Assembly (NCBI GenBank): GCA_019057475.1
Contig: DXJO01000004.1
Span: 64,001 to 128,000 of the forward strand
Source: Candidatus Thorarchaeota archaeon
GTDB taxonomy: Archaea; Asgardarchaeota; Thorarchaeia; Thorarchaeales; Thorarchaeaceae
Direction: 5' to 3'
Length of the DNA stretch: 64,000 nucleotides
The notes under the pieces were generated by a model. It was given only the letters and a program-made list of their open reading frames with translations. It was not told where the DNA came from and did not search any database. The translations under genes and the position numbers were made by a program. Positions 1,389 to 11,125 of this stretch are shown here, piece by piece (the first letter of the stretch is position 1; each line of letters opens with the position of its first letter).

Positions 1389-2403
1389 CTACTTGCTTGG
1401 TGCGGCCTTCCAGTCAAGAATATGTGCCATCCAACCAGCAGTTCGTGCCATGGCAAACAGTGAGGTGTTGAGTTCTGCGGGTATGCCCAAAGTTGTGTAA
1501 ACAGCAGCATTGTAGAGATCCACGTTTGGATGCAGTGTCAACCCCTTTCGTTCACGCGCAAGCAATGGTCCCACGCTCGCCACTTCCTCCACGAGTTTGT
1601 AGAGTTGGTCATGCCTTGTTCCTAAGGCACGTCTCTTGAGGATGTTTCTTAGGATCACTGCTCTTGGATCAATTGTGCGATAAATCCTATGTCCGATCCC
1701 AAATATCCTCTGTCCTGAGTCCAGCCTCTTTGCCAGCTTGGCTCTAACCATGGTCGGATCAGCGATATCCTCTATCATCTTCATGGCTCTTAGGCCGGCT
1801 CCATGATGAAGAGGGTTTCCGTGAATTAACAATGCGGAACCTAGAGCTTCAGAGAGGGAAACCCCAGCTTTGACCCCACGTTCCAGCGCAGAGAGCGAGG
1901 GATTATCGGGGTCGTCCATGTGAAGAATGACCGTGGTTTCAAGGTCCTTAAGGTCTCGAGTCGATGGAAGTGATCCTGTTAGCGTCCAGATGAAGTTGGC
2001 CACATGGTTCAGATCCGTTCTTGGTTCGATGAGTTTGAGTTTCTCACACTCCCGCCAAGAGTTCGCAATCACAATGGGGGTGAGAGCAACCATTGTGAGC
2101 AGAGTTTCAAATTGATCTAGGCGAAGCTCCGTTCTAATCATATTAAGACTCTCACTCAGCCAAATCAGAGCAGACATGCAGTCGCCTTTTTGTACGGAAC
2201 CCAAACTTAGAGTTTCAATAGCTGATTCTCGCAGGCGTATTATCGAGGACACAAAATCATCATGCTGTTCCGCGGAAGGACGGCTGCTGTGAACCAACAG
2301 ATAGAGAATGGACTCGAAATCATAATCCAGAGCCAAGTCGGCTACATTTAGTCCCCTGAATAAGCTGTCCTTCCTCGGGGTCAATTCTACTTATGGGTTG
2401 CAA
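1389..2403 (-). pseudogene. Citrate synthase-like protein with an apparent frameshift near 2361 (pseudogene or sequencing indel)
   Basis: ORF 1389-2384 has GIGHRIY, DPRA, HPNVDLY and ARTAGW motifs; the canonical N-terminal ISxIDxxxGxL segment (TTG 2403: MQPISRIDPEEGQL) lies in a different frame from FRGLNVADLA. Confidence 0.7.
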
Positions 2404-2545: not shown

Positions 2546-3583
2546 GTGGTACGACCCGGTCCAGGCTGTGCTGTTTGGGAGATCACACTGAAGTGCAATC
2601 TGAATTGCATGCATTGCGGCTCCGCAGCTGGAAAAGCACGAAGCGATGAGCTTACCACAGATGAAGCACTGCAACTATGTGATGACCTGAAAGGCATCGG
2701 TTGTCAGGGCGTCGCTATGATGGGTGGCGAGCCACTACTTAGAAAAGATTGGCCATCTATCGCAGAGCGAGTACGCGAAGTAGGCATGGACCTGTCGATT
2801 ATCACTAACGGGTACAAAATCACTGAGAGCAAATTTCAGCGAATCTTCGATGTCAACCCCGAGTTGGTTACAGTAAGTATTGATGGCGGGCACGCCGCTA
2901 TTCATGATACGATACGCGGAGTTCCGGGCTCCTTCAAACAGGTAGTAGCAACTCTTCGCCGACTCGTGAAATCTGGCTTGCCAACTGGTGTCATCACCAC
3001 TGTCCACAAGATGAACCTAGGCGAGCTTCCCACTATCCGAAAATTCTTGCTGGGCACGGGCGTAGCGTGGCAGATACAGATGGCCACGCCCTACGGGCGT
3101 CTTACATATGATCATGTTCTCTCAAAGGAAGAATACTATTCACTGGCTCTATTCATTGCTGCCACCCGGAAGAGGTACTCCAAGAAGGAGCTCATGATTG
3201 CAGGTGCACATGACATGGGCTACTTCTCACGGGTTCTCCCCCCCTTGCAAGTGTATCCGTGGCAAGGCTGTCAAGCTGGCATCTCAACACTTGGGATTGA
3301 GAGCAATGGAAACATCCTTGGGTGTCTTGCATTGCCTCCGGAGTACGTGGAGGGCAACATTCGCGAACGGCCTCTGAAAGAGATCTGGAACGATGACGCT
3401 TTTTCCTCGTACACTCGCAGAGTTCGGCGGACTGACTTGGGCAGCGAGTGCGCCAGCTGTACATACAGTAAGATATGCAAGGGTGGCTGTTCTGCCGTTT
3501 CTCATTCGATGGCAGGTGGACTTCATCGAGATCCATATTGCCTTCGTCTTATTGAAGAGGGACTCAAGAAAAGCAACAGTTGA
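2546..3583 (+). CDS. Radical SAM/SPASM peptide or protein maturase, PlpX/TIGR03913 (splicease)-like
   Basis: VWEITLKCNLNCMHCGSAAGKARSDELTT (CxxxCxxC), GGEP, SIDG, WQIQ, WQGCQAG..TLGIESNGNILGC and a 7-Cys SPASM domain (CQAG, GC, CxxC, C, GGC, YC); GGAGGGA SD-like site before the GTG. Confidence 0.9.
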   Translation: MVRPGPGCAVWEITLKCNLNCMHCGSAAGKARSDELTTDEALQLCDDLKGIGCQGVAMMGGEPLLRKDWPSIAERVREVGMDLSIITNGYKITESKFQRIFDVNPELVTVSIDGGHAAIHDTIRGVPGSFKQVVATLRRLVKSGLPTGVITTVHKMNLGELPTIRKFLLGTGVAWQIQMATPYGRLTYDHVLSKEEYYSLALFIAATRKRYSKKELMIAGAHDMGYFSRVLPPLQVYPWQGCQAGISTLGIESNGNILGCLALPPEYVEGNIRERPLKEIWNDDAFSSYTRRVRRTDLGSECASCTYSKICKGGCSAVSHSMAGGLHRDPYCLRLIEEGLKKSNS

Positions 3584-3627: not shown

Positions 3628-3993
3628 ATGTCATTGATGGATATGATTCCAGTTGGGATTGAACTACTCCGACTTAGTGGGCGAGACGGCGTGTACGCTA
3701 TTCTATCACGGGTGTTCAAAGCTCAACCGACACCTCTGGCATATAGAAGAAGAATCAGGCCGCTCGGCGCTAGCGTAGGATTGTCAGAGGCTGAGGTTGA
3801 CGAGGTTATTAGCGGGAGTTCTAATGTTACGGTCCTTCCATCTTGGTTGAAGTGGGGTCTTGTTGCTTTCATAGTCGTTGTGTTGATTCTTAGTGCCATC
3901 GCGGTGACCGGGTCGTACGTGCCCTGGTATACGAATCCGACCTACGTTCCAGGTACCGACTATGCAAGCATCAGGCCTAAGGATTTCTTGTAG
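3628..3993 (+). CDS. Putative membrane-anchored precursor/substrate protein A (121 aa), C-terminal core TYVPGTDYASIRPKDFL
   Basis: LGASVGLSEAEV motif, one hydrophobic TM helix, conserved C-terminal motif shared with three downstream paralogs. Confidence 0.8.
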   Translation: MSLMDMIPVGIELLRLSGRDGVYAILSRVFKAQPTPLAYRRRIRPLGASVGLSEAEVDEVISGSSNVTVLPSWLKWGLVAFIVVVLILSAIAVTGSYVPWYTNPTYVPGTDYASIRPKDFL

Positions 3994-4113
3994 GAATGGC
4001 CTATTGAGTTCGTGCATATACCTAAAGATCAAGTGGCATTACGCTATTCAATGAATTATCTCATCCCTTTGCGTTGCGTAAGTTTCTTATTGGAGTTAGT
4101 CTAATGTTCATAC

Positions 4114-4446
4114 ATGCTTCTAGATAAACCTCCCACCGTCGGACTTGACATCCTCCGTACCCGGGGCGGAGAGCGTCTTTACCGATTGATTCTTCGAATT
4201 GCGGGGATTCCAACAGTCAGGGCAATGCCCTCGAAGGAATTAGTGCGTCTTGGAGCCAAGGTCGGGCTTGAAGCGTCGGAGGTTGAACAGGTTGCAGAGA
4301 GCAGACCTGATGTAAATGTGCTTCCCGATTGGTTGAAGGCAATTCTAGCCCTCATTGTGATTGTTGGCTCGTACTATCTGGGGCGAAGAATGACCTATCT
4401 CCCCGGGACGTTGTATGGAGCCATAGGTCCACGGGACTTCTTGTAG
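4114..4446 (+). CDS. Putative membrane-anchored precursor/substrate protein B (110 aa), core TYLPGTLYGAIGPRDFL
   Basis: LGAKVGLEASEV motif, VLPDWLK then TM helix, conserved C-terminal motif; closest to paralog A. Confidence 0.8.
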   Translation: MLLDKPPTVGLDILRTRGGERLYRLILRIAGIPTVRAMPSKELVRLGAKVGLEASEVEQVAESRPDVNVLPDWLKAILALIVIVGSYYLGRRMTYLPGTLYGAIGPRDFL

Positions 4447-4539
4447 GAATGGTCCAGAGGGTTCATCTGAATAACTTGGAAACTGGCTTGCATTACGCGT
4501 ATCAATAGCTTTTATGCTTCGGAGCCCTACCGTCTTCTC

Positions 4540-4923
4540 ATGACTTGGAGGGAATCCATTCTCTATGAACTGAACGCAACTCGCTTTCGACGGCTAGGCG
4601 GGCTTGGAGGGCTCAAAGATTGGGTGTGCGGTTTCTTAGCAACTTCAGTTCTTGATACAGAGAAAGCCGAGCAGTTAGGCGCTCAAGCTGGTCTGACTTC
4701 CGACGAGGTTGGAGCTGTTATGGACGCTCGAATGAGCAGAAAAGAGAGCATCCTGTTCAAGCTGACGGTAGTAGTTTTTACGCTCATAATTGTGGGAGCA
4801 GTTATTATGGCAGACCCATTAGGTGTTTTTGGCCAATACCCCGCCACCAACACCACGTACGTGCCGGGTACGCGCTATGGCAGCATCAGCCCGAAGGACT
4901 TCCAGTGGGGATTCGCACATTAA
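4540..4923 (+). CDS. Putative membrane-anchored precursor/substrate protein C (127 aa), core NTTYVPGTRYGSISPKDFQWGFAH
   Basis: LGAQAGLTSDEV motif, TM helix, conserved C-terminal motif. Confidence 0.8.
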   Translation: MTWRESILYELNATRFRRLGGLGGLKDWVCGFLATSVLDTEKAEQLGAQAGLTSDEVGAVMDARMSRKESILFKLTVVVFTLIIVGAVIMADPLGVFGQYPATNTTYVPGTRYGSISPKDFQWGFAH

Positions 4924-5000
4924 CACTTGTCGATTATTCAGGGCCAGTCGCTCTACGCCAACCGATAATCTTAACGGCTTTGACCCCATACTATACAACT

Positions 5001-5369
5001 ATGAATTGGATGGAACTCTGTCTGTATCAACTGGATGTGGTTTCTATCCGAGGGAGCCGCCGCTTCCTTGGGCCTATGGAATGGCTTCGCAGTTTCTTGA
5101 CAAAACCAGTCCTTGGGTCAGAGAAGATCGAGCTGCTCGGTGCTCAAGCAGGTCTCGAACCCAATGAGGCTCGAGACGCAGTAAGCATGCCCGCAAGCAA
5201 GGGTGAGAGCATAGTGTTCAAGCTGGTTGTGGGGATTGTGCTTTTCTCAATCTTGATTTCGATTGTGATTATGAGCCCAATAGGCGCCTACATCAATCAG
5301 GAGCTCTTCAACACAACTTACCTGCCAGGGACACTCTATGGAAGCATCAGTCCGAAAGACTTCAGGTAA
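5001..5369 (+). CDS. Putative membrane-anchored precursor/substrate protein D (122 aa), core NTTYLPGTLYGSISPKDFR
   Basis: Start moved to ATG 5001 because MNWMELCLYQL aligns with MTWRESILYEL of paralog C; LGAQAGLEPNEA motif, TM helix, conserved core. Confidence 0.8.
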   Translation: MNWMELCLYQLDVVSIRGSRRFLGPMEWLRSFLTKPVLGSEKIELLGAQAGLEPNEARDAVSMPASKGESIVFKLVVGIVLFSILISIVIMSPIGAYINQELFNTTYLPGTLYGSISPKDFR

Positions 5370-5374
5370 GCACG

Positions 5375-6688
5375 ATGCGAATCCACGTGGGCTGCGGCCC
5401 GGTCTACAAGAAGGGCTACGTCAACATTGACGTCTTTGATCCTACTGTTGCAGATCGTATCATGTCTGCATATCATCTGGAATTTCCCGATGACTCAGCA
5501 AGTCTTGTGGAGTGTATGCACACTCTCGAACACCTGGGTGCAGCGAAGAGCATCTATGCATTGGCTGAATTCTTTCGCGTATTGAAACCTGGGGGTGTCT
5601 TACTTCTGGAAATCCCAGACATAGAAGCAACCTTTGCAAACTTTCTCAAGCACGGGGAAAAACAAAGGAAGCTCCTAATGAACTGGATCTACGGCTTAGA
5701 TTCGCCAGGGATGGGCCATCGCTACTGCTTCCCCCGGGAACTGCTCAGTCGCATGTTGAAAGAGTCTGGGTTCAAAGATATCCTGTTGAAGCGGCTCGCG
5801 ACCAAATCTATCCAACCATCATTGCGGGTCAAGTGCAGGAAACCTGAATCGTATATTGCCCATCAGATTATTTCACGTGTACGACGTTCTCTGGTAGACA
5901 ATGGCCTAGTTGATCTTGATGACCAAGTCAGTGCACTTGACCGCGAAACTCTCATCCAATCTCTTGCTTCACTGACACATCAGCTGTGTGCCAAATGGGA
6001 TGAACTGGCGCTAAGGCAGATGACCATAGAATCAGCGGTGCAGAATCCGCGAATGGGGTTGGCTTTCATCGAGCAACTTGAGAGCCAGGTTTCTGAGTCG
6101 GCTTCTCGGGTGAAGAGGTATGGGCGGATTCTCGAAACACTGGGGTCTCTTGACTTCCCTGCAGTTTTGTTGCATCTACTTATGCAGGTTCCTCCACAGG
6201 TAGGAACTCAGAACCAGACGTACCTGACTGTCCGAAATATGGGGGTTGCCACTGTCAAGAAGCTTCTTGCAGGAAAGGAAGAACAGGCAGTCTCGAAGGA
6301 GCTGCGACGAACACGTGCGGCGTTGTCTGGCGATAAAATTCTGAGCCACTTCTCTGAAGAAGGAGTGAAGCGCCTTGCAGAGCAGAGTTTCGCTCACGGT
6401 GCAAAAGCTTTTGCTAATCATGAACTAACTGAGGCCGTTCGATTGTTCGAAGAGGCGTTCAGTCTTAATCGTGATGATCTTCTTATTACATGGAACCTAG
6501 CGCGTCTGAAGGCGATCGAAGGAAAAGGAGATACGTCAAAGAAGTACTATGAAATGACTTCCTTGCTTGCCCAACGCTACAAGCAACCCTTCCGTCGAAG
6601 GATGCTCGAGCGGCTTCGCTCTGAAATCAGTCTTGCATCCGAGGGCCAGATGGATGGCCTAGCAGCACCAGTCTACCAGGCCTTCTAG
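5375..6688 (+). CDS. Class I SAM-dependent methyltransferase with helical middle region and C-terminal TPR-like repeats
   Basis: HVGCG..GYVNID, FPDDSA, HTLEHL, FRVLKPGG; C-terminal AVRLFEEAFSLN...TWNLARL TPR-like helices; starts 5 bp after paralog D. Confidence 0.8.
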   Translation: MRIHVGCGPVYKKGYVNIDVFDPTVADRIMSAYHLEFPDDSASLVECMHTLEHLGAAKSIYALAEFFRVLKPGGVLLLEIPDIEATFANFLKHGEKQRKLLMNWIYGLDSPGMGHRYCFPRELLSRMLKESGFKDILLKRLATKSIQPSLRVKCRKPESYIAHQIISRVRRSLVDNGLVDLDDQVSALDRETLIQSLASLTHQLCAKWDELALRQMTIESAVQNPRMGLAFIEQLESQVSESASRVKRYGRILETLGSLDFPAVLLHLLMQVPPQVGTQNQTYLTVRNMGVATVKKLLAGKEEQAVSKELRRTRAALSGDKILSHFSEEGVKRLAEQSFAHGAKAFANHELTEAVRLFEEAFSLNRDDLLITWNLARLKAIEGKGDTSKKYYEMTSLLAQRYKQPFRRRMLERLRSEISLASEGQMDGLAAPVYQAF

Positions 6689-6712: not shown

Positions 6713-7717
6713 CTACAGCTTCTTTGCTATTAACGCTGCCAAATCAGCTAGGCGATGTGCGTAGCCTGCCTCATTGTCATACCAGCCAAGAACCTTTACC
6801 ATATTCCCCTGAGTCATCGTCGCAAGGGAGTCAAAAGAGCAGGAATCTGTATCGTTAATGAAGTCGGATGAAACAAGCGGCTCGTCAACGTACCCTAGAT
6901 ACGGAGCCATATCTCCCTTCTCGGAGGCTTTCTTGAATGCCGCATTGACAACGTCTACAGTTACTTCCTTGTCAACCTCAGCAACCAAGTCGACCAACGA
7001 AACGTCCATCAATGGAACTCTGATTGCCATGCCGTTCAACCGGCCGACCATTTTTGGATAGACCAGACCGATAGCTTTGGCAGCTCCGGTGGTCGTGGGG
7101 ATCATGTTCCATGCTCCAGCTCTGGCCCTTCTGAGGTCCTTATGCCACATGTCTAACATCCGTTGATCGTTTGTCACGGCGTGAATTGTGGTCATCAAGC
7201 CTGTTTCAAGTCCGAAGTTCTGGTCCAGAACCTTGACCAGTGGAGCAAGGCAGTTTGTGGTGCAGGAGGCGTTGGAGATAACGTGATGCTTTGAGGAGTC
7301 ATAATCGCCATCATTAACGCCAAGCACGACGGTGAACATCTCGCCACTGCCGGGGGCACTTATCACGACCTTCTTGGCTCCTGCAGTGAGATGTTTCTCT
7401 GCGTCTTCCCGTTTTCTGAAAAAGCCGGTACACTCCATCACGATGTCAATGCCCATCTCCTTCCATGGAAGCTTAGCAGGATCCCTCTCGGAAAGAATCT
7501 TGACCTCTTTGCCGTTGACAGTTATGCTTCCCTTCTCATACTCAACAGTACCGTCGAATCTGCCCATGACGGTATCGTACTTGAGGAGGTGGGCATTGGT
7601 GTGTTCGTCAGTGAGGTCATTTGCTGCTACGACTTCAAACTCTTTACTCTTCAACGCAGCCTTGAGAAAGCCACGTCCTATTCTTCCAAAACCGTTGATA
7701 GCTACTCTCGCAGTCAT
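6713..7717 (-). CDS. gap: Class I (bacterial/eukaryotic-type) glyceraldehyde-3-phosphate dehydrogenase
   Basis: VAINGFGRIGR, SNASCTTNCLAP catalytic Cys motif, TTGAAKA, WYDNE; start taken at MTARV (7717). Confidence 0.95.
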   Translation of the reverse strand: MTARVAINGFGRIGRGFLKAALKSKEFEVVAANDLTDEHTNAHLLKYDTVMGRFDGTVEYEKGSITVNGKEVKILSERDPAKLPWKEMGIDIVMECTGFFRKREDAEKHLTAGAKKVVISAPGSGEMFTVVLGVNDGDYDSSKHHVISNASCTTNCLAPLVKVLDQNFGLETGLMTTIHAVTNDQRMLDMWHKDLRRARAGAWNMIPTTTGAAKAIGLVYPKMVGRLNGMAIRVPLMDVSLVDLVAEVDKEVTVDVVNAAFKKASEKGDMAPYLGYVDEPLVSSDFINDTDSCSFDSLATMTQGNMVKVLGWYDNEAGYAHRLADLAALIAKKL

Positions 7718-7946
7718 ATTGTAGCACCCTTCTGCGCCTGCTCGTAGTGTTCGCCTATATTGTTTGCTATCAAACCAAGTACCTCCGCATACAAAGGAAA
7801 GATGGGTGCGCCTTGGACAATATGTAAGGTCTTCAGCTGTCACATCTCAAATGACACTTCAACTAGTCCATCCTGTTTGTTTTGCTATTCGATTGATTTT
7901 TATCAGCGATAAGCAATGGTAATCGAAACGTGAAGGGGAAACAGTA

Positions 7947-9800
7947 TTGAGCAAAGAACGGAAGAAGAAAGAAGACATCTCTTTGGAAGATCTGATAGCT
8001 CTACCTGTCCAGTTCATGGGCAACCCTGGTAGAACTAGTCGAAGAATATGCTTTGCATCAAATAAGACTGGCCGAATGGAATTACATTTACTTGATCTTG
8101 AAACGCAAGAGTTCTCTCAACTATCAAATGGTGAGTATCCAATATCTCCAGTGGGTTGGCATAAATGGGCTCCAGATGACACATATCTCCTATTTCCTAA
8201 GGACCCAATTCAGGGAAATGAGAAGAATGACATCTACAAAATATCAGTCCCAGATGGAAGAGTAACGCAAATTACCAATACTCCTGAATCCAGCGATGAC
8301 TTGGGAGAGGTTAGCCATGATGGGAAATGGATTGTCTTCCGCTCCGATCGTGTTGAGGGTATTGATCAACTGTTCAGAATGCGCCCTGATGGAACGGAAG
8401 TCACGCAGCTCACAGAGCATACCCGCCCGATTTCATTCTGGTCAGATGTTAGTATATCCCCAGATGATGAGTGGATTGCTTATACTGCAAATGAATCAGA
8501 GAATCTCCAGAATATCGATGTATGGGTTGTGAAAATGGATGGTTCTGATAGGAAGAAGCTCTTTGGAGTCCAAGATGGATCAAAGGAGTTGGTTCGGGCT
8601 TGGTCACGCGATGGTACTATGTTATTAGTATCATCTGACTATGCGGGGACTGACCAAGCTGGAGTTTATTTCCTGAACTCAGGTAATGTGAAATGGTTTG
8701 GAGAAGCAAGTGCTCCTGAGTCACCAGTGAAATTCACTGCTGATGGTAAACAAATCATAGTTGGACGTGACATTGATGCTGAGCAGAAACTTCTCCTCTA
8801 TGATATAAAAACTGGAGAGGAAACCACACTCGATATCCCCTCTGGATTTGCAGGTGCAGTATACACTACATTTGACGGAAATCATCTACTTGTGGGTCAT
8901 CAAGACTCGACCCATCGAATGCGTTTCATACTATACGATCTCATCAAGCATTCCTTTGAAGAGGTCATCCCTGCAGAGTATGGGAGATTTTCTCCTGAAG
9001 ATTTCCTCCCAGATGAATACATCAGCTATCCTTCTGGTGACACGACGGTTCATGCGATTCTATACAGGCCAAAGAATCTCAAGCGTGGTGTGAAGCTACC
9101 TGCTATCGTAGTACCCCATGGAGGTCCTACTGGACACTATATCCGCGTCTTCCTTGATGATGCTCAGGTACTTGCAAATGAAGGATATGTCTTATTGTAC
9201 CCGAATGTAAGAGGATCCACAGGATATGGTGTAGAATTCAGAGATGCATGTCTGAATGACTGGGGGGGCAAGGATCTTGATGACGTTGAGGCTGGGGTTG
9301 AGTATCTACGTAGTCTAGATTATGTGAATCCTGACCGAATAGGAATACATGGTGGTAGCTATGGAGGTTATTTGACATTCATGGCTGTCACAAAAAAGCC
9401 AGACCTCTGGAAAGCAGCCTCAGCTTGGATGGGAATCACTTCATTAAAGCATCTCCACGAGAAGTGCAAGGAAACATTCCCGGCTCTGCCATATTACCTT
9501 GAGGAGCAGATGGGCAAACCTGAGGACGAAGGAGTTCTTGAACTATGGGAAGACAGAAGCGCAATCAACTTCGTGAAGAATATGTCCGCCAAGCTTCAAA
9601 TGATTCATGCTGAGAACGACCCGCGATGTCCCATCGAGCAGTCTGAGATGTTCAGAGACCGATTAGTCGAATTGGGACGAAAAGAGGGAGAAGACTTCGA
9701 GTATGTCCATCTAACAGAAGAGGGACACGGGTCATTCGATAAAGACCAACGCGTACGGATGATGCGTCACGTCTTTGACTTCTTTAATCGAAACCTCTGA
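7947..9800 (+). CDS. S9 family peptidase (acylaminoacyl/dipeptidyl peptidase) with PD40/TolB-like propeller
   Basis: HGGP, NVRGSTGYG, GGSYGG nucleophile, ENDPRC Asp, EGHG His. Confidence 0.92.
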   Translation: MSKERKKKEDISLEDLIALPVQFMGNPGRTSRRICFASNKTGRMELHLLDLETQEFSQLSNGEYPISPVGWHKWAPDDTYLLFPKDPIQGNEKNDIYKISVPDGRVTQITNTPESSDDLGEVSHDGKWIVFRSDRVEGIDQLFRMRPDGTEVTQLTEHTRPISFWSDVSISPDDEWIAYTANESENLQNIDVWVVKMDGSDRKKLFGVQDGSKELVRAWSRDGTMLLVSSDYAGTDQAGVYFLNSGNVKWFGEASAPESPVKFTADGKQIIVGRDIDAEQKLLLYDIKTGEETTLDIPSGFAGAVYTTFDGNHLLVGHQDSTHRMRFILYDLIKHSFEEVIPAEYGRFSPEDFLPDEYISYPSGDTTVHAILYRPKNLKRGVKLPAIVVPHGGPTGHYIRVFLDDAQVLANEGYVLLYPNVRGSTGYGVEFRDACLNDWGGKDLDDVEAGVEYLRSLDYVNPDRIGIHGGSYGGYLTFMAVTKKPDLWKAASAWMGITSLKHLHEKCKETFPALPYYLEEQMGKPEDEGVLELWEDRSAINFVKNMSAKLQMIHAENDPRCPIEQSEMFRDRLVELGRKEGEDFEYVHLTEEGHGSFDKDQRVRMMRHVFDFFNRNL

Positions 9801-9949: not shown

Positions 9950-11125
9950 TCACTCAGGTTCCTGGGGTCTCGCAAGCAGCGCCTGCTGATATCGTTTCAT
10001 GCCAACATAATACACGGGAACCGGAAGCAGTTCCATAATTCCCACCATGACGAATGGAGCAGCGGGGTTGAGTGAAACCCACATCATTCCTCCCATAATG
10101 GGCGCAACGAATCTCGCGAAGGCCAGCACACCGCGGAAGTGACCAAACCCTTCGTGAGCCTTCCCCTCGTACGCTGTGCCAAATACAGAAGACATCACAG
10201 TGTGACCTGCTGTCCCAACAACGGTCTGAACGATGAAGATTGCGGCAATCCACCACAGGTTGGGGGCAAAGACGAACATGATGTTTGTTGCAAACCCAAT
10301 CAGGGATGCGAATGCAACCACGTGGATTTTGTTGGCTTTGTCTGCATATCTCCCTATAGGCTCGCTCACGAATGAAATGATGATACCCGGGGGAAGGTAA
10401 ACCAGTGCTATGAGCATGATGTCTGTGGTGAATCTCTCGAGAATGAATAGCTCGACAAATGGCGATAGAAGTGACATCCCAAAGGCATTGATGGCTGCAG
10501 CTATCACCAACGCTACAATACCAACGGCAATTGCGGCCTGCTTGTTTTGAGAGAGAACCGGCGCTTCTTACTCGATTGGCGGCACTCGACTTGCTAGCAC
10601 TATCACTCCACCGATTAGGCTAGTCGCAGCAAAGAACAAGAACGGAACAATTCCGTTGAAGATGGTTAATAGGCTGAAACCAATAAACGCCCCTATTATG
10701 GACTCACGCCCGTTTGCAGCTTCCCGACGCCCGAAAGCTTCTGCTCGATTCTCATGAATTGCTCGCTCGGAAATCTCTGCATCACTGCCTACATAGTAGA
10801 AGGCCGCTCCGCATCCCCATACAAGACTATTGAGAATGAGCAAATCCACCAATCCGAGGTAGATTGCCATAGCCATTCCGATGTATGATAGTGATCGAAA
10901 CAGAGCTCCTGCAAAGATTGCTTGACGCCTTCGTTTTCTCTTCACGATTCTTCCGGCCAATGGTGAGAATATCGCAATTCCAAGAGTGAATGAAGCGAAG
11001 ATCATCCCCACCTGGATTGCATTGGCTCCATTGTGACCGCCATGATTGGAAGAATGAATGCCACATAGAAAAAGCCCAAACTGCAGAAAAGCGATGAATT
11101 GTAGATTGACTTGGGGCTCGCCCAA
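9950..11125 (-). pseudogene. MFS transporter, disrupted (in-frame TAA at 10568-10570 plus two compensating frameshifts at about 11030-11083)
   Basis: ORFs 10568-11125 and 9950-10510 are in the same frame across one TAA (PPIE*EAPV); GRYADK MFS motif; TM1 reads SLGFFYVAFILPIMAVTM only in a shifted frame. Confidence 0.75.

Follow-up and report, generated by a model that had tools for sequence, protein, structure and literature searches.

Spliceases excise a tyramine equivalent from their substrates at an X-Tyr-Gly (XYG) site, leaving an alpha-keto-beta-amino amide (PMC11414181, PMC10533398). Published splice sites differ in the residue ahead of the Tyr: they read MYG, LYG or DYG and in an engineered case GYG (PMC11626197, PMC10533398). 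The spliceotide products inhibit Ser and Cys proteases (PMC11414181, PMC11626197), and they do so only when spliced (PMC11626197). Spliceotide clusters number in the thousands in bacterial and archaeal genomes, according to Scott et al. 2022 as cited by PMC11626197. Here we describe a gene cassette in a 64,000-nucleotide stretch of a Candidatus Thorarchaeota genome (contig DXJO01000004.1, positions 64,001 to 128,000, hereafter the window), in which a gene for a radical S-adenosylmethionine (rSAM) enzyme with a SPASM domain is followed by four small paralogous genes and a methyltransferase gene. Comparative genomics and a predicted enzyme-substrate complex indicate that the four small proteins are very probably substrates of the upstream rSAM/SPASM enzyme. 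We found no description of this precursor family in the literature, a search that did not extend to Scott et al. 2022, so that an earlier listing is possible. Two surveys of archaeal biosynthetic clusters and of archaeal peptides that are ribosomally synthesised and then modified post-translationally (RiPPs) do not mention the system.

Four small paralogues share a leader-like motif and a C-terminal tail

The rSAM/SPASM gene (2546-3583, plus strand) encodes a 345-residue protein, the presumed maturase of the four small proteins encoded downstream on the same strand. Copy 1 (3628-3993) has 121 residues, with the motif LGASVGLSEAEV (nt 3763-3798), then a transmembrane (TM) helix (residues 77-95) and finally the tail TYVPGTDYASIRPKDFL (nt 3940-3990), whose site reads D-Y-A around the invariant Tyr112 (nt 3961-3963). 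Copy 2 (4114-4446, 110 residues) carries LGAKVGLEASEV (nt 4249-4284) and, with a short spacer, the tail TYLPGTLYGAIGPRDFL (nt 4393-4443); its site is L-Y-G at the conserved Tyr101 (nt 4414-4416). Copy 3 (4540-4923, 127 residues) carries LGAQAGLTSDEV (nt 4675-4710) and TYVPGTRYGSISPKDFQWGFAH (nt 4855-4920), with the site R-Y-G at the conserved Tyr113 (nt 4876-4878). Copy 4 (5001-5369) carries LGAQAGLEPNEA (nt 5136-5171) and TYLPGTLYGSISPKDFR (nt 5316-5366), with the site L-Y-G at the conserved Tyr113 (nt 5337-5339). We count 122 residues for copy 4 from the ATG at 5001. This is most likely its start, rather than the GTG at 4905 where the frame opens, because from this Met its N-terminus (30 residues) aligns with copy 3, and because the orthologues run to 119-122 residues.

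An earlier note on this DNA had described a four-member family with these tails and LGA motifs. We recovered all four open reading frames (ORFs) where it had placed them, and every sequence that it quoted matches. The copies are 27-38% identical overall. All four have L46, G47, A48, G51, L52 and E56 of the leader motif in common (copy 1 numbering), and the four-copy alignment reproduced the count of 10 invariant positions among the 16 of the tail (T105, Y106, P108, G109, T110, Y112, I115, P117, D119 and F120). Each copy has one strongly hydrophobic segment of 19 residues between motif and tail, and the Tyr lies 9-14 residues before the C-terminus.

We then compared the genes with four to five close orthologues for which DNA was available, taking the ratio of non-synonymous to synonymous substitution (dN/dS) at the level of regions. 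Whole-gene values were 0.27-0.47, which indicates purifying selection. The 16-residue tail gave 0.21 in copy 1, 0.09 in copy 2, 0.08 in copy 3 and 0.0 in copy 4, whose tail had no non-synonymous change among the orthologues compared; in copies 2-4 no other part of the gene is as tightly constrained as the tail.

Pfam and NCBIfam gave no usable match to the four proteins at E values up to 0.1, and Nif11, NHLP, DUF1843 and DUF1842 were all absent. Across these proteins and the 79-residue Thermoplasmatota versions described below the sole match was DUF5058 (E 0.07), far under its cut-off. Among known membrane-protein families there is thus none that matches them, which supports the reading in the earlier note. 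A SurA_N-like identity suggested by an ESM Atlas feature search (0.88) was rejected, as that score is under the level at which it has meaning.

The predicted complex places motif and tail on the enzyme

We co-folded the window's rSAM enzyme with copy 1, using alignments that we built ourselves and including three 4Fe-4S clusters and S-adenosylmethionine (SAM) as ligands. The interface score ipSAE was 0.77, 0.83 and 0.89 (median 0.83), against 0.00 in all three controls. Of the 80 solved complexes in the calibration of the tool, 58 reached the mark for this score, as did 2 of its 110 mismatched pairs; these counts are only a rough guide to this co-fold because it used our own alignments and had ligands along. 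At least 84% of the contacts were common to the runs, and the predicted local distance difference test score (pLDDT) of the partner was at least 61. There was no close solved complex for the model to have memorised, the nearest relatives in the PDB being SkfB, PqqE and SuiB.

In the co-fold, copy 1 contacts the enzyme through residues 35-61 and 103-120, and its TM helix makes no contact. The tightest pairs join L46-L52 and V57 of copy 1 to enzyme residues 158-162 and 198-206. In the alignment of the enzyme's clade, Y198 and F203 of this docking stretch show no variation, and E196, S199 and I204 almost none. The contacts of the tail include enzyme residues near the cluster-binding N-terminus (4-12, 54-59, 84-86 and 106-109). 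This supports a model in which the rSAM enzyme binds copy 1 via both leader motif and tail. The earlier note had named the LGA motif as a candidate enzyme-recognition leader, and that proposal gains from the modelled docking as well as from the soluble relatives described below, which have a single leader.

A predicted cytoplasmic enzyme-binding region attached to a TM helix in every copy would also be expected if the small proteins were regulatory subunits or tethers that bring the rSAM enzyme and the methyltransferase to the membrane to act there on a lipid, a cofactor or another protein. The methyltransferase is moreover of a common type that is not specific to peptides. However, the co-fold docks the tail too, near the enzyme's cluster-binding N-terminus, and copy number runs from one to four per locus. 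Relatives that lack a TM helix carry the tail two to five times in tandem, and the helix of the Geobacterales relatives, with its AQA or AHA end, resembles a cleavable signal peptide. We consider such a tethering role very unlikely.

Enzyme and small proteins occur together in two domains of life

A profile built from the four copies found 75 homologues, all of them metagenomic or from Thorarchaeota metagenome-assembled genomes (MAGs). A wider profile, used in an exhaustive search of 1.84 billion representative proteins, gave 144 clusters at 50% identity. With these homologues and clusters and the low dN/dS, the family is not a product of chance. In four divergent loci that we fetched, the order is rSAM/SPASM gene, two to four family members, then methyltransferase gene, even though the flanks differ. 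For most of 36 rSAM relatives in species genomes a neighbouring ORF matches the family profile. The pair of rSAM enzyme and precursor was found in Thorarchaeota, Hermodarchaeota, Promethearchaeota, Thermoplasmatota and Geobacterales, and so in two domains of life. The Thermoplasmatota relatives, whose enzyme is about 50% identical, have directly upstream of the rSAM gene a gene for a 79-residue protein laid out as LGxxLGL, TM helix and PGGPxGxYY(A/T/S)G.S.KDF. The short flanks of rSAM relatives from Myxococcota, Deltaproteobacteria and Anaerolineales yielded no precursor. Among Asgard genomes the distribution is patchy (50 of 301), and includes the window's genome and all four others of its genus.

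Such linkage bears on whether the tail is instead a C-terminal sorting or anchoring signal, or the family a plain structural membrane family, with the rSAM gene adjacent only by accident. A short Pro/Gly-rich C-terminal tail beside a TM helix is a loose echo of PGF-CTERM and PEP-CTERM. In those systems the motif comes first, then a TM helix, and the extreme C-terminus is a basic cluster. The four proteins do not have this motif-first order, as their helix precedes the motif and nothing hydrophobic comes after it. The adjacency to an rSAM gene across two domains of life with differing flanks, the lack of any Pfam or NCBIfam match and the 0.00 of the co-fold controls all speak against these readings, which we regard as extremely unlikely.

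Two further arrangements were seen in the fetched loci. In several Thorarchaeota-type loci (L008-L012) the rSAM gene is directly preceded by a PHP-domain gene and one or two SCP2-domain genes, which are absent from the window. In Margulisiibacteriota, a protein of at least 199 residues that is cut by the contig end (L048:3-599) bears YTPGSRYAVVSKNEI near its C-terminus, and its gene lies directly upstream of a cassette-type methyltransferase gene and an rSAM gene. The tail motif thus occurs on larger bacterial proteins too.

Multi-core relatives and variation around the Tyr

We found that 15 of the 144 clusters are multi-core relatives with two to five cores each, nearly all without a TM helix. 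They have a single LGxxLGL leader (for example IYKIGKNLGLNREDID) followed by repeats of YKAGTxYGT(I/V)SPK(D/E)(L/I/F). The LGxxxGL segment thus acts like a leader and the tail like a core. In many of these proteins the x position changes from repeat to repeat (K/E/R, H/D/W or W/H/M). One soluble five-core precursor (P0245) is encoded on an archaeal contig 145 nt upstream of the gene for an rSAM enzyme 48% identical to the window's. The same locus (L054/L055, 1432-6803) holds a second rSAM/SPASM enzyme of the same broad group, an alpha/beta-hydrolase with a weak Peptidase_S9 match, a B12-binding rSAM enzyme and, past the main rSAM gene, a 51-residue ORF; it looks like a larger RiPP cluster.

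An alignment of 24 sequences from across the lineages left only Tyr112 and Asp119 invariant (copy 1 numbering), with G47, G51, L52, G109 and F120 at least 90% conserved. Asp stands at +7 from the Tyr in 199 of 214 unique cores and Glu in 13. At the residue before the Tyr (X), entropy over these cores was 3.01 bits, with Leu (61) and Arg (56) most frequent, followed by Tyr (19), Phe (16), Asp (14), Lys (10), His (9), Trp (7), Ile (7) and others. The earlier note had treated X as a variable warhead position on a fixed scaffold. X is indeed far above its neighbours (0-1.7 bits), but it does not exceed position -5 (3.22 bits) or the non-motif flank (3.55-3.79 bits), so that X, though unconstrained across the family, varies no more than non-motif sites, which weakens that reading.

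The idea of a small panel of specificities held in part. X does differ among the copies (D, L, R and L), but within orthologue groups it is fixed or nearly so: Leu in 22 of 22 for copy 2, Arg in 19 of 19 for copy 3 and Leu in 17 of 17 for copy 4. The 19 orthologues of copy 1 have Asp (15), Tyr (3) or Phe (1), and all have Ala after the Tyr. Since copies 2 and 4 both have Leu, the genome's panel comprises three side chains (D/L/R) and not four. This pattern fits X as a specificity position chosen by lineage, not as a hypervariable site.

The enzyme lies beside the named splicease-related families

The window's enzyme matches Pfam Radical_SAM (4.5e-26) and SPASM (2.4e-10). Its CxxxCxxC motif (C17/C21/C24) and seven SPASM cysteines are all kept in an alignment of 12 clade members. 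The top NCBIfam match was TIGR04103 (227.9 bits, cut-off 725), which covered residues 9-333 and left the last 70 or so model positions unmatched; TIGR04103 is the PlpX family, IPR026482 (PMC11002830). Second came TIGR03913, the "GDL motif peptide-associated" family of NCBIfam, at 211.9 bits (cut-off 591.75). MftC (141.4 bits, cut-off 265) and PqqE (96.3 bits, cut-off 381) scored lower. For all clade members scored, TIGR04103 and TIGR03913 were best (156-242 bits), ahead of AhbD, NirJ, MftC and PqqE, with all these scores far under the curated cut-offs.

In a tree, the window's enzyme falls in a clade of 23 rows with a support of 99 in the Shimodaira-Hasegawa-like approximate likelihood ratio test (SH-aLRT). 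This clade stands beside, not inside, the clade of TIGR04103 and TIGR03913 (SH-aLRT 99), and MftC and TIGR04053 lie apart from both. The tree is a quick maximum-likelihood search over 33 rows with sparse sampling of references, and its rows do not include the experimentally verified spliceases PlpX, PcpX, RhaX, RcsX and RasX.

The genes around these relatives share a theme. A plasmid-borne TIGR04103 enzyme of Nostoc, 35% identical to the window's, adjoins a Nif11 precursor that ends IALYGLPPELF and a small ORF of PlpY size. TIGR03913 enzymes on plasmids adjoin DUF1843/DUF1842 proteins with P/M-Y-G, and an Aureibacter relative is accompanied by three DUF1843 genes (L-Y-A, M-Y-A and P-Y-G) and then a methyltransferase gene. 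Precursors with X-Tyr-Gly/Ala thus accompany the two named neighbour families alike.

Kunitz fusions in Geobacterales and the topology of the tail

The precursors of five Geobacterales species, Geobacter hydrogenophilus among them, carry a Kunitz/BPTI domain (Pfam 1.6e-14) after a signal-like helix and before the tail. The region ahead of the helix (n-region) carries the LGxxxGL leader motif, for example IGKKAGLGDGEV, and in 4 of 5 species the helix ends in AQA or AHA, which is like a signal-peptidase site. Tails of these proteins read GTKYYTVSVRDF, GTRYFTVSLRDF and GHKYGGVGIRDF. The rSAM gene comes after the precursor gene, and the methyltransferase gene is next wherever the fetched stretch was long enough; it was not seen in the short L073 stretch. 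Because the Kunitz domain is disulfide-rich, the part after the helix would be exported and the leader would be cytoplasmic, and any modification would have to come before export. Longer fused forms of the family were not found in a set of 5.8 billion proteins, a weak negative since the Geobacterales Kunitz fusions exist.

Where the P1 residue of the Kunitz domain could be read (GPCK, GRCK) it is Lys, and X of the tail is Lys or Arg, which fits X acting as a P1-like determinant. The link to protease inhibition is an association within one bacterial order, not a proof. In one Geobacterales genome (G384; L072, C1:107958-111350), a Kunitz protein keeps an n-region of the LGxxxGL type and a signal-like helix and has no Tyr tail.

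For the window's proteins, flanking charges favour an N-in/C-out orientation in copies 3 and 4 and are ambiguous for copies 1 and 2. Just ahead of the core, copies 3 (4849-4857) and 4 (5310-5318) have an N-T-T sequon. Asn stands at -9 in 39 of the 214 cores of the family and Thr at -7 in 121. Were the tail external, the sequon might be N-glycosylated.

A proposed modification of the Tyr and its alternatives

Given its invariance, the Tyr is likely to be the modified residue. In the mechanism that we propose, the LGAxxGLxxxE helix-turn of the cytoplasmic N-terminal region would be the leader and would dock on a conserved enzyme helix (about 158-162 and 195-206), and the single hydrophobic helix would be a signal anchor. 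The 16-residue C-terminal core would thread into the enzyme barrel, and before membrane insertion the enzyme would modify one Tyr (Y112, Y101, Y113 and Y113 in copies 1-4). A further mark would then come from the downstream methyltransferase, and the modified tail would finish outside the membrane.

By analogy, the chemistry would be PlpX-type excision of tyramine, with X (D, L, R and L) converted to an alpha-keto-beta-amino amide. As this rests on the nearest characterised relatives, we give it about an even chance. The product may then be a surface-displayed protease inhibitor with its specificity set by X; this further step, suggested by the published activity of spliceotides and by the Geobacterales Kunitz fusions, is put forward tentatively. 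Taken as a whole this is our best explanation, on which we are evenly divided. A more general form is that Asgard archaea, Thermoplasmatota and Geobacterales make membrane-anchored or secreted proteins whose tails bear an alpha-ketoamide warhead installed by the enzyme and act at the surface as covalent protease inhibitors with a gene-encoded P1 (here D, L and R). We consider it unlikely in this full extent. In it the signal anchor's n-region would also serve as the RiPP leader, so that modification would have to come before export.

PlpX chemistry at X had been assumed in the earlier note. What holds of that assumption is that the nearest named relatives are the PlpX and DUF1843-associated families and that they have X-Tyr-Gly/Ala precursors. 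Several other observations weigh against the proposal. The enzyme lies outside both named splicease-related families by score (227.9 against 725 bits) and by tree. Known splice sites are marked by Gly after the Tyr, yet just 129 of 214 cores (60%) have it, with Ser in 39, Ala in 34 and a few Asn or Thr; copy 1 itself has D-Y-A, without Gly, and in Geobacterales the residue is Tyr or Phe. Tyr-6, Gly-3, Asp+7 and Phe+8 come close to the Tyr in conservation, a feature that splicing alone would leave unaccounted for. The methyltransferase is left unexplained. The topology is ambiguous in part, and copy 2 has Arg-Arg directly past its TM helix. Finally, there is no rSAM gene near the tail-less Kunitz gene in the 3.4 kb fetched, which shows that the N-terminal motif can persist without the enzyme; this locus looks as if tail and enzyme had been lost together while the leader stayed.

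The conserved residues around the Tyr leave room for a cross-link or another Tyr-directed reaction and could mark a second reaction partner. The same substrates may thus undergo another chemistry, in which the Tyr is cross-linked (C-C or C-O to Tyr-6, Asp+7 or Phe+8) in the manner of PqqE and MftC, hydroxylated or epimerised and the methyltransferase caps the product. A two-residue reaction predicts that Asp+7, Phe+8, Gly-3 and Tyr-6 should approach the conservation of the Tyr, as they do; Gly after the Tyr is dispensable, the enzyme clade is separate from TIGR04103 and TIGR03913 with scores far under their cut-offs, and two Tyr-directed enzymes, MftC (141 bits) and PqqE (96 bits), belong to the same SPASM group. 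However, the nearest named relatives by hidden Markov model (HMM) and tree adjoin X-Tyr-Gly/Ala precursors, and the position ahead of the Tyr tolerates different residues, as at published splice sites. Moreover, the proposed partners are not constant: Tyr-6 is missing from the Thermoplasmatota versions, and Asp and Phe are replaced by Glu, Leu or Ile in multi-core peptides. We regard another Tyr chemistry as a serious possibility, though somewhat improbable.

The downstream methyltransferase

The methyltransferase gene (5375-6688, plus strand) starts 5 nt past the stop of copy 4. Its 437-residue product has a class I SAM methyltransferase domain (residues 1-140; Pfam Methyltransf_23, 1.3e-10) and a long helical TPR-like C-terminal region with a weak TPR_19 match. 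It is presumed to be a tailoring enzyme or a substrate-binding partner. A protein of the same size and kind (about 435 residues) follows the small genes in all four divergent Thorarchaeota-type loci, and the Geobacter hydrogenophilus counterpart is 31% identical over 395 residues (E 1e-57). The methyltransferase gene is not adjacent in any of three Thermoplasmatota loci, and the Aureibacter methyltransferase is related to the window's by class only.

On an Anaerolineales contig (L053, about 559-2193), the open frame of a cassette-type methyltransferase continues into the N-terminal CxxxCxxC region of an rSAM enzyme and then shifts. This may be a methyltransferase-rSAM fusion, a pair of overlapping genes or an assembly frameshift.

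Layout of the cassette and neighbouring genes

The six plus-strand genes of the cassette (rSAM/SPASM, four paralogues and methyltransferase) are separated by gaps of 44, 120, 93, 77 and 5 nt, in order. They lie between a divergent citrate-synthase-like gene upstream (1389-2384, minus strand) and a convergent glyceraldehyde-3-phosphate dehydrogenase (GAPDH) gene downstream (6713-7843, minus strand). The window's ORF list holds no extra ORF between the rSAM and methyltransferase genes, so there is no PlpY-like or chaperone gene there. The genome that carries the window is 3.34 Mb and 96% complete, and a search of it found just these four family members. By this locus its closest relatives are Candidatus Thorarchaeota MAGs, with rSAM enzymes 93-97% identical.

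A serine peptidase of the S9 prolyl-oligopeptidase family (7947-9800, plus strand, 617 residues, with an N-terminal beta-propeller) is encoded 1.3 kb downstream of the cassette. We dropped it as a candidate target protease, since it is not kept beside the cassette in the four divergent loci and such a link is therefore unsupported. Further on, a major facilitator superfamily (MFS) transporter gene (9950-11125, minus strand) is split by one in-frame TAA into ORFs of 185 and 186 residues, with 57 nt from the stop to the next TTG start; Pfam MFS_1 matches both halves. This could be a pseudogene, a sequencing error or a truly split transporter.

What the system would mean

If the ketoamide-tail reading is true, spliceotide-type chemistry would be shown for the first time in archaea, and likewise on membrane proteins. 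Formation of a backbone beta-amino acid and a ketoamide would then reach archaeal membrane and secreted proteins, beyond bacterial peptides, and Asgard archaea would gain a surface defence or a regulatory layer against proteases. Splicing would also offer protein engineering a compact tag of leader and core (about 25 and 16 residues) with a new enzyme clade. If the chemistry is another, a widespread uncharacterised rSAM reaction would act on an invariant Tyr (144 clusters; 50 of 301 Asgard genomes). Either way the substrates are easy to handle, as the soluble multi-core precursors need no membrane. The cultured Geobacter hydrogenophilus DSM 13691 carries a Kunitz-fused precursor together with the rSAM enzyme and the methyltransferase.

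Comparison with known systems

Mycofactocin and pyrroloquinoline quinone (PQQ) biosynthesis employ the rSAM/SPASM enzymes MftC and PqqE, each of which acts on a Tyr of a small ribosomal precursor. These enzymes have the superfamily and domain layout of the window's enzyme, but give lower scores and form an outgroup in the tree. They need the chaperones MftB and PqqD, and none is encoded in the window's cassette. Their precursors are single-copy with the Tyr at or near the C-terminus, whereas here the Tyr lies 9-14 residues in and there are four copies. Kunitz/BPTI inhibitors offer a likeness of another kind: the domain is fused into the Geobacterales precursors, and the window's four proteins do not have it.

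The TIGR03913 systems of Burkholderia, Azospirillum and Aureibacter have several tandem small precursors with P/M/L-Tyr-Gly/Ala, then a small residue, then Ile. In Aureibacter, as in the window's cassette, a methyltransferase gene comes after the rSAM gene. In these systems a helical DUF1843 domain, without a TM helix, has the Tyr site at its N-terminal end, while here the site lies in a C-terminal tail. DUF1843-type proteins were reportedly treated as splicease substrates by Scott et al. in 2022.

Among the type I systems (PlpX/PlpY/PlpA), the likeness is in the enzyme, as TIGR04103 is the best HMM match of the window's enzyme and its Nostoc member sits beside an ...LYG... precursor. However, the window's score is under one third of the cut-off and its clade is separate, and there is no Nif11/NHLP leader and no PlpY-like gene in its cassette.

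Our comparison with the binary spliceotides of Rheinheimera, which have no Y protein (RhaX/RhaA, RcsX/RcsA and RasX/RasA), is drawn from published descriptions, not from sequence comparison. As here, those systems have an rSAM/SPASM enzyme with an adjacent precursor and no separate gene for a RiPP recognition element (RRE) (PMC11414181, PMC11626197), and a leader helix is modelled on the enzyme with the Tyr site reaching into the active site. The residue before the Tyr gives MYG, DYG and LYG there and D/L/R-Y-G/A here. In contrast to Rheinheimera, the precursors here have a TM or signal helix between leader and core, the cassette includes a large methyltransferase-TPR protein, Gly after the Tyr is optional, and the hosts are archaea and Geobacterales, where the system is known from genes alone. 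A splicease-like rSAM enzyme with membrane-anchored or secreted substrates and a dedicated methyltransferase would, on these comparisons, be a variation on known systems.

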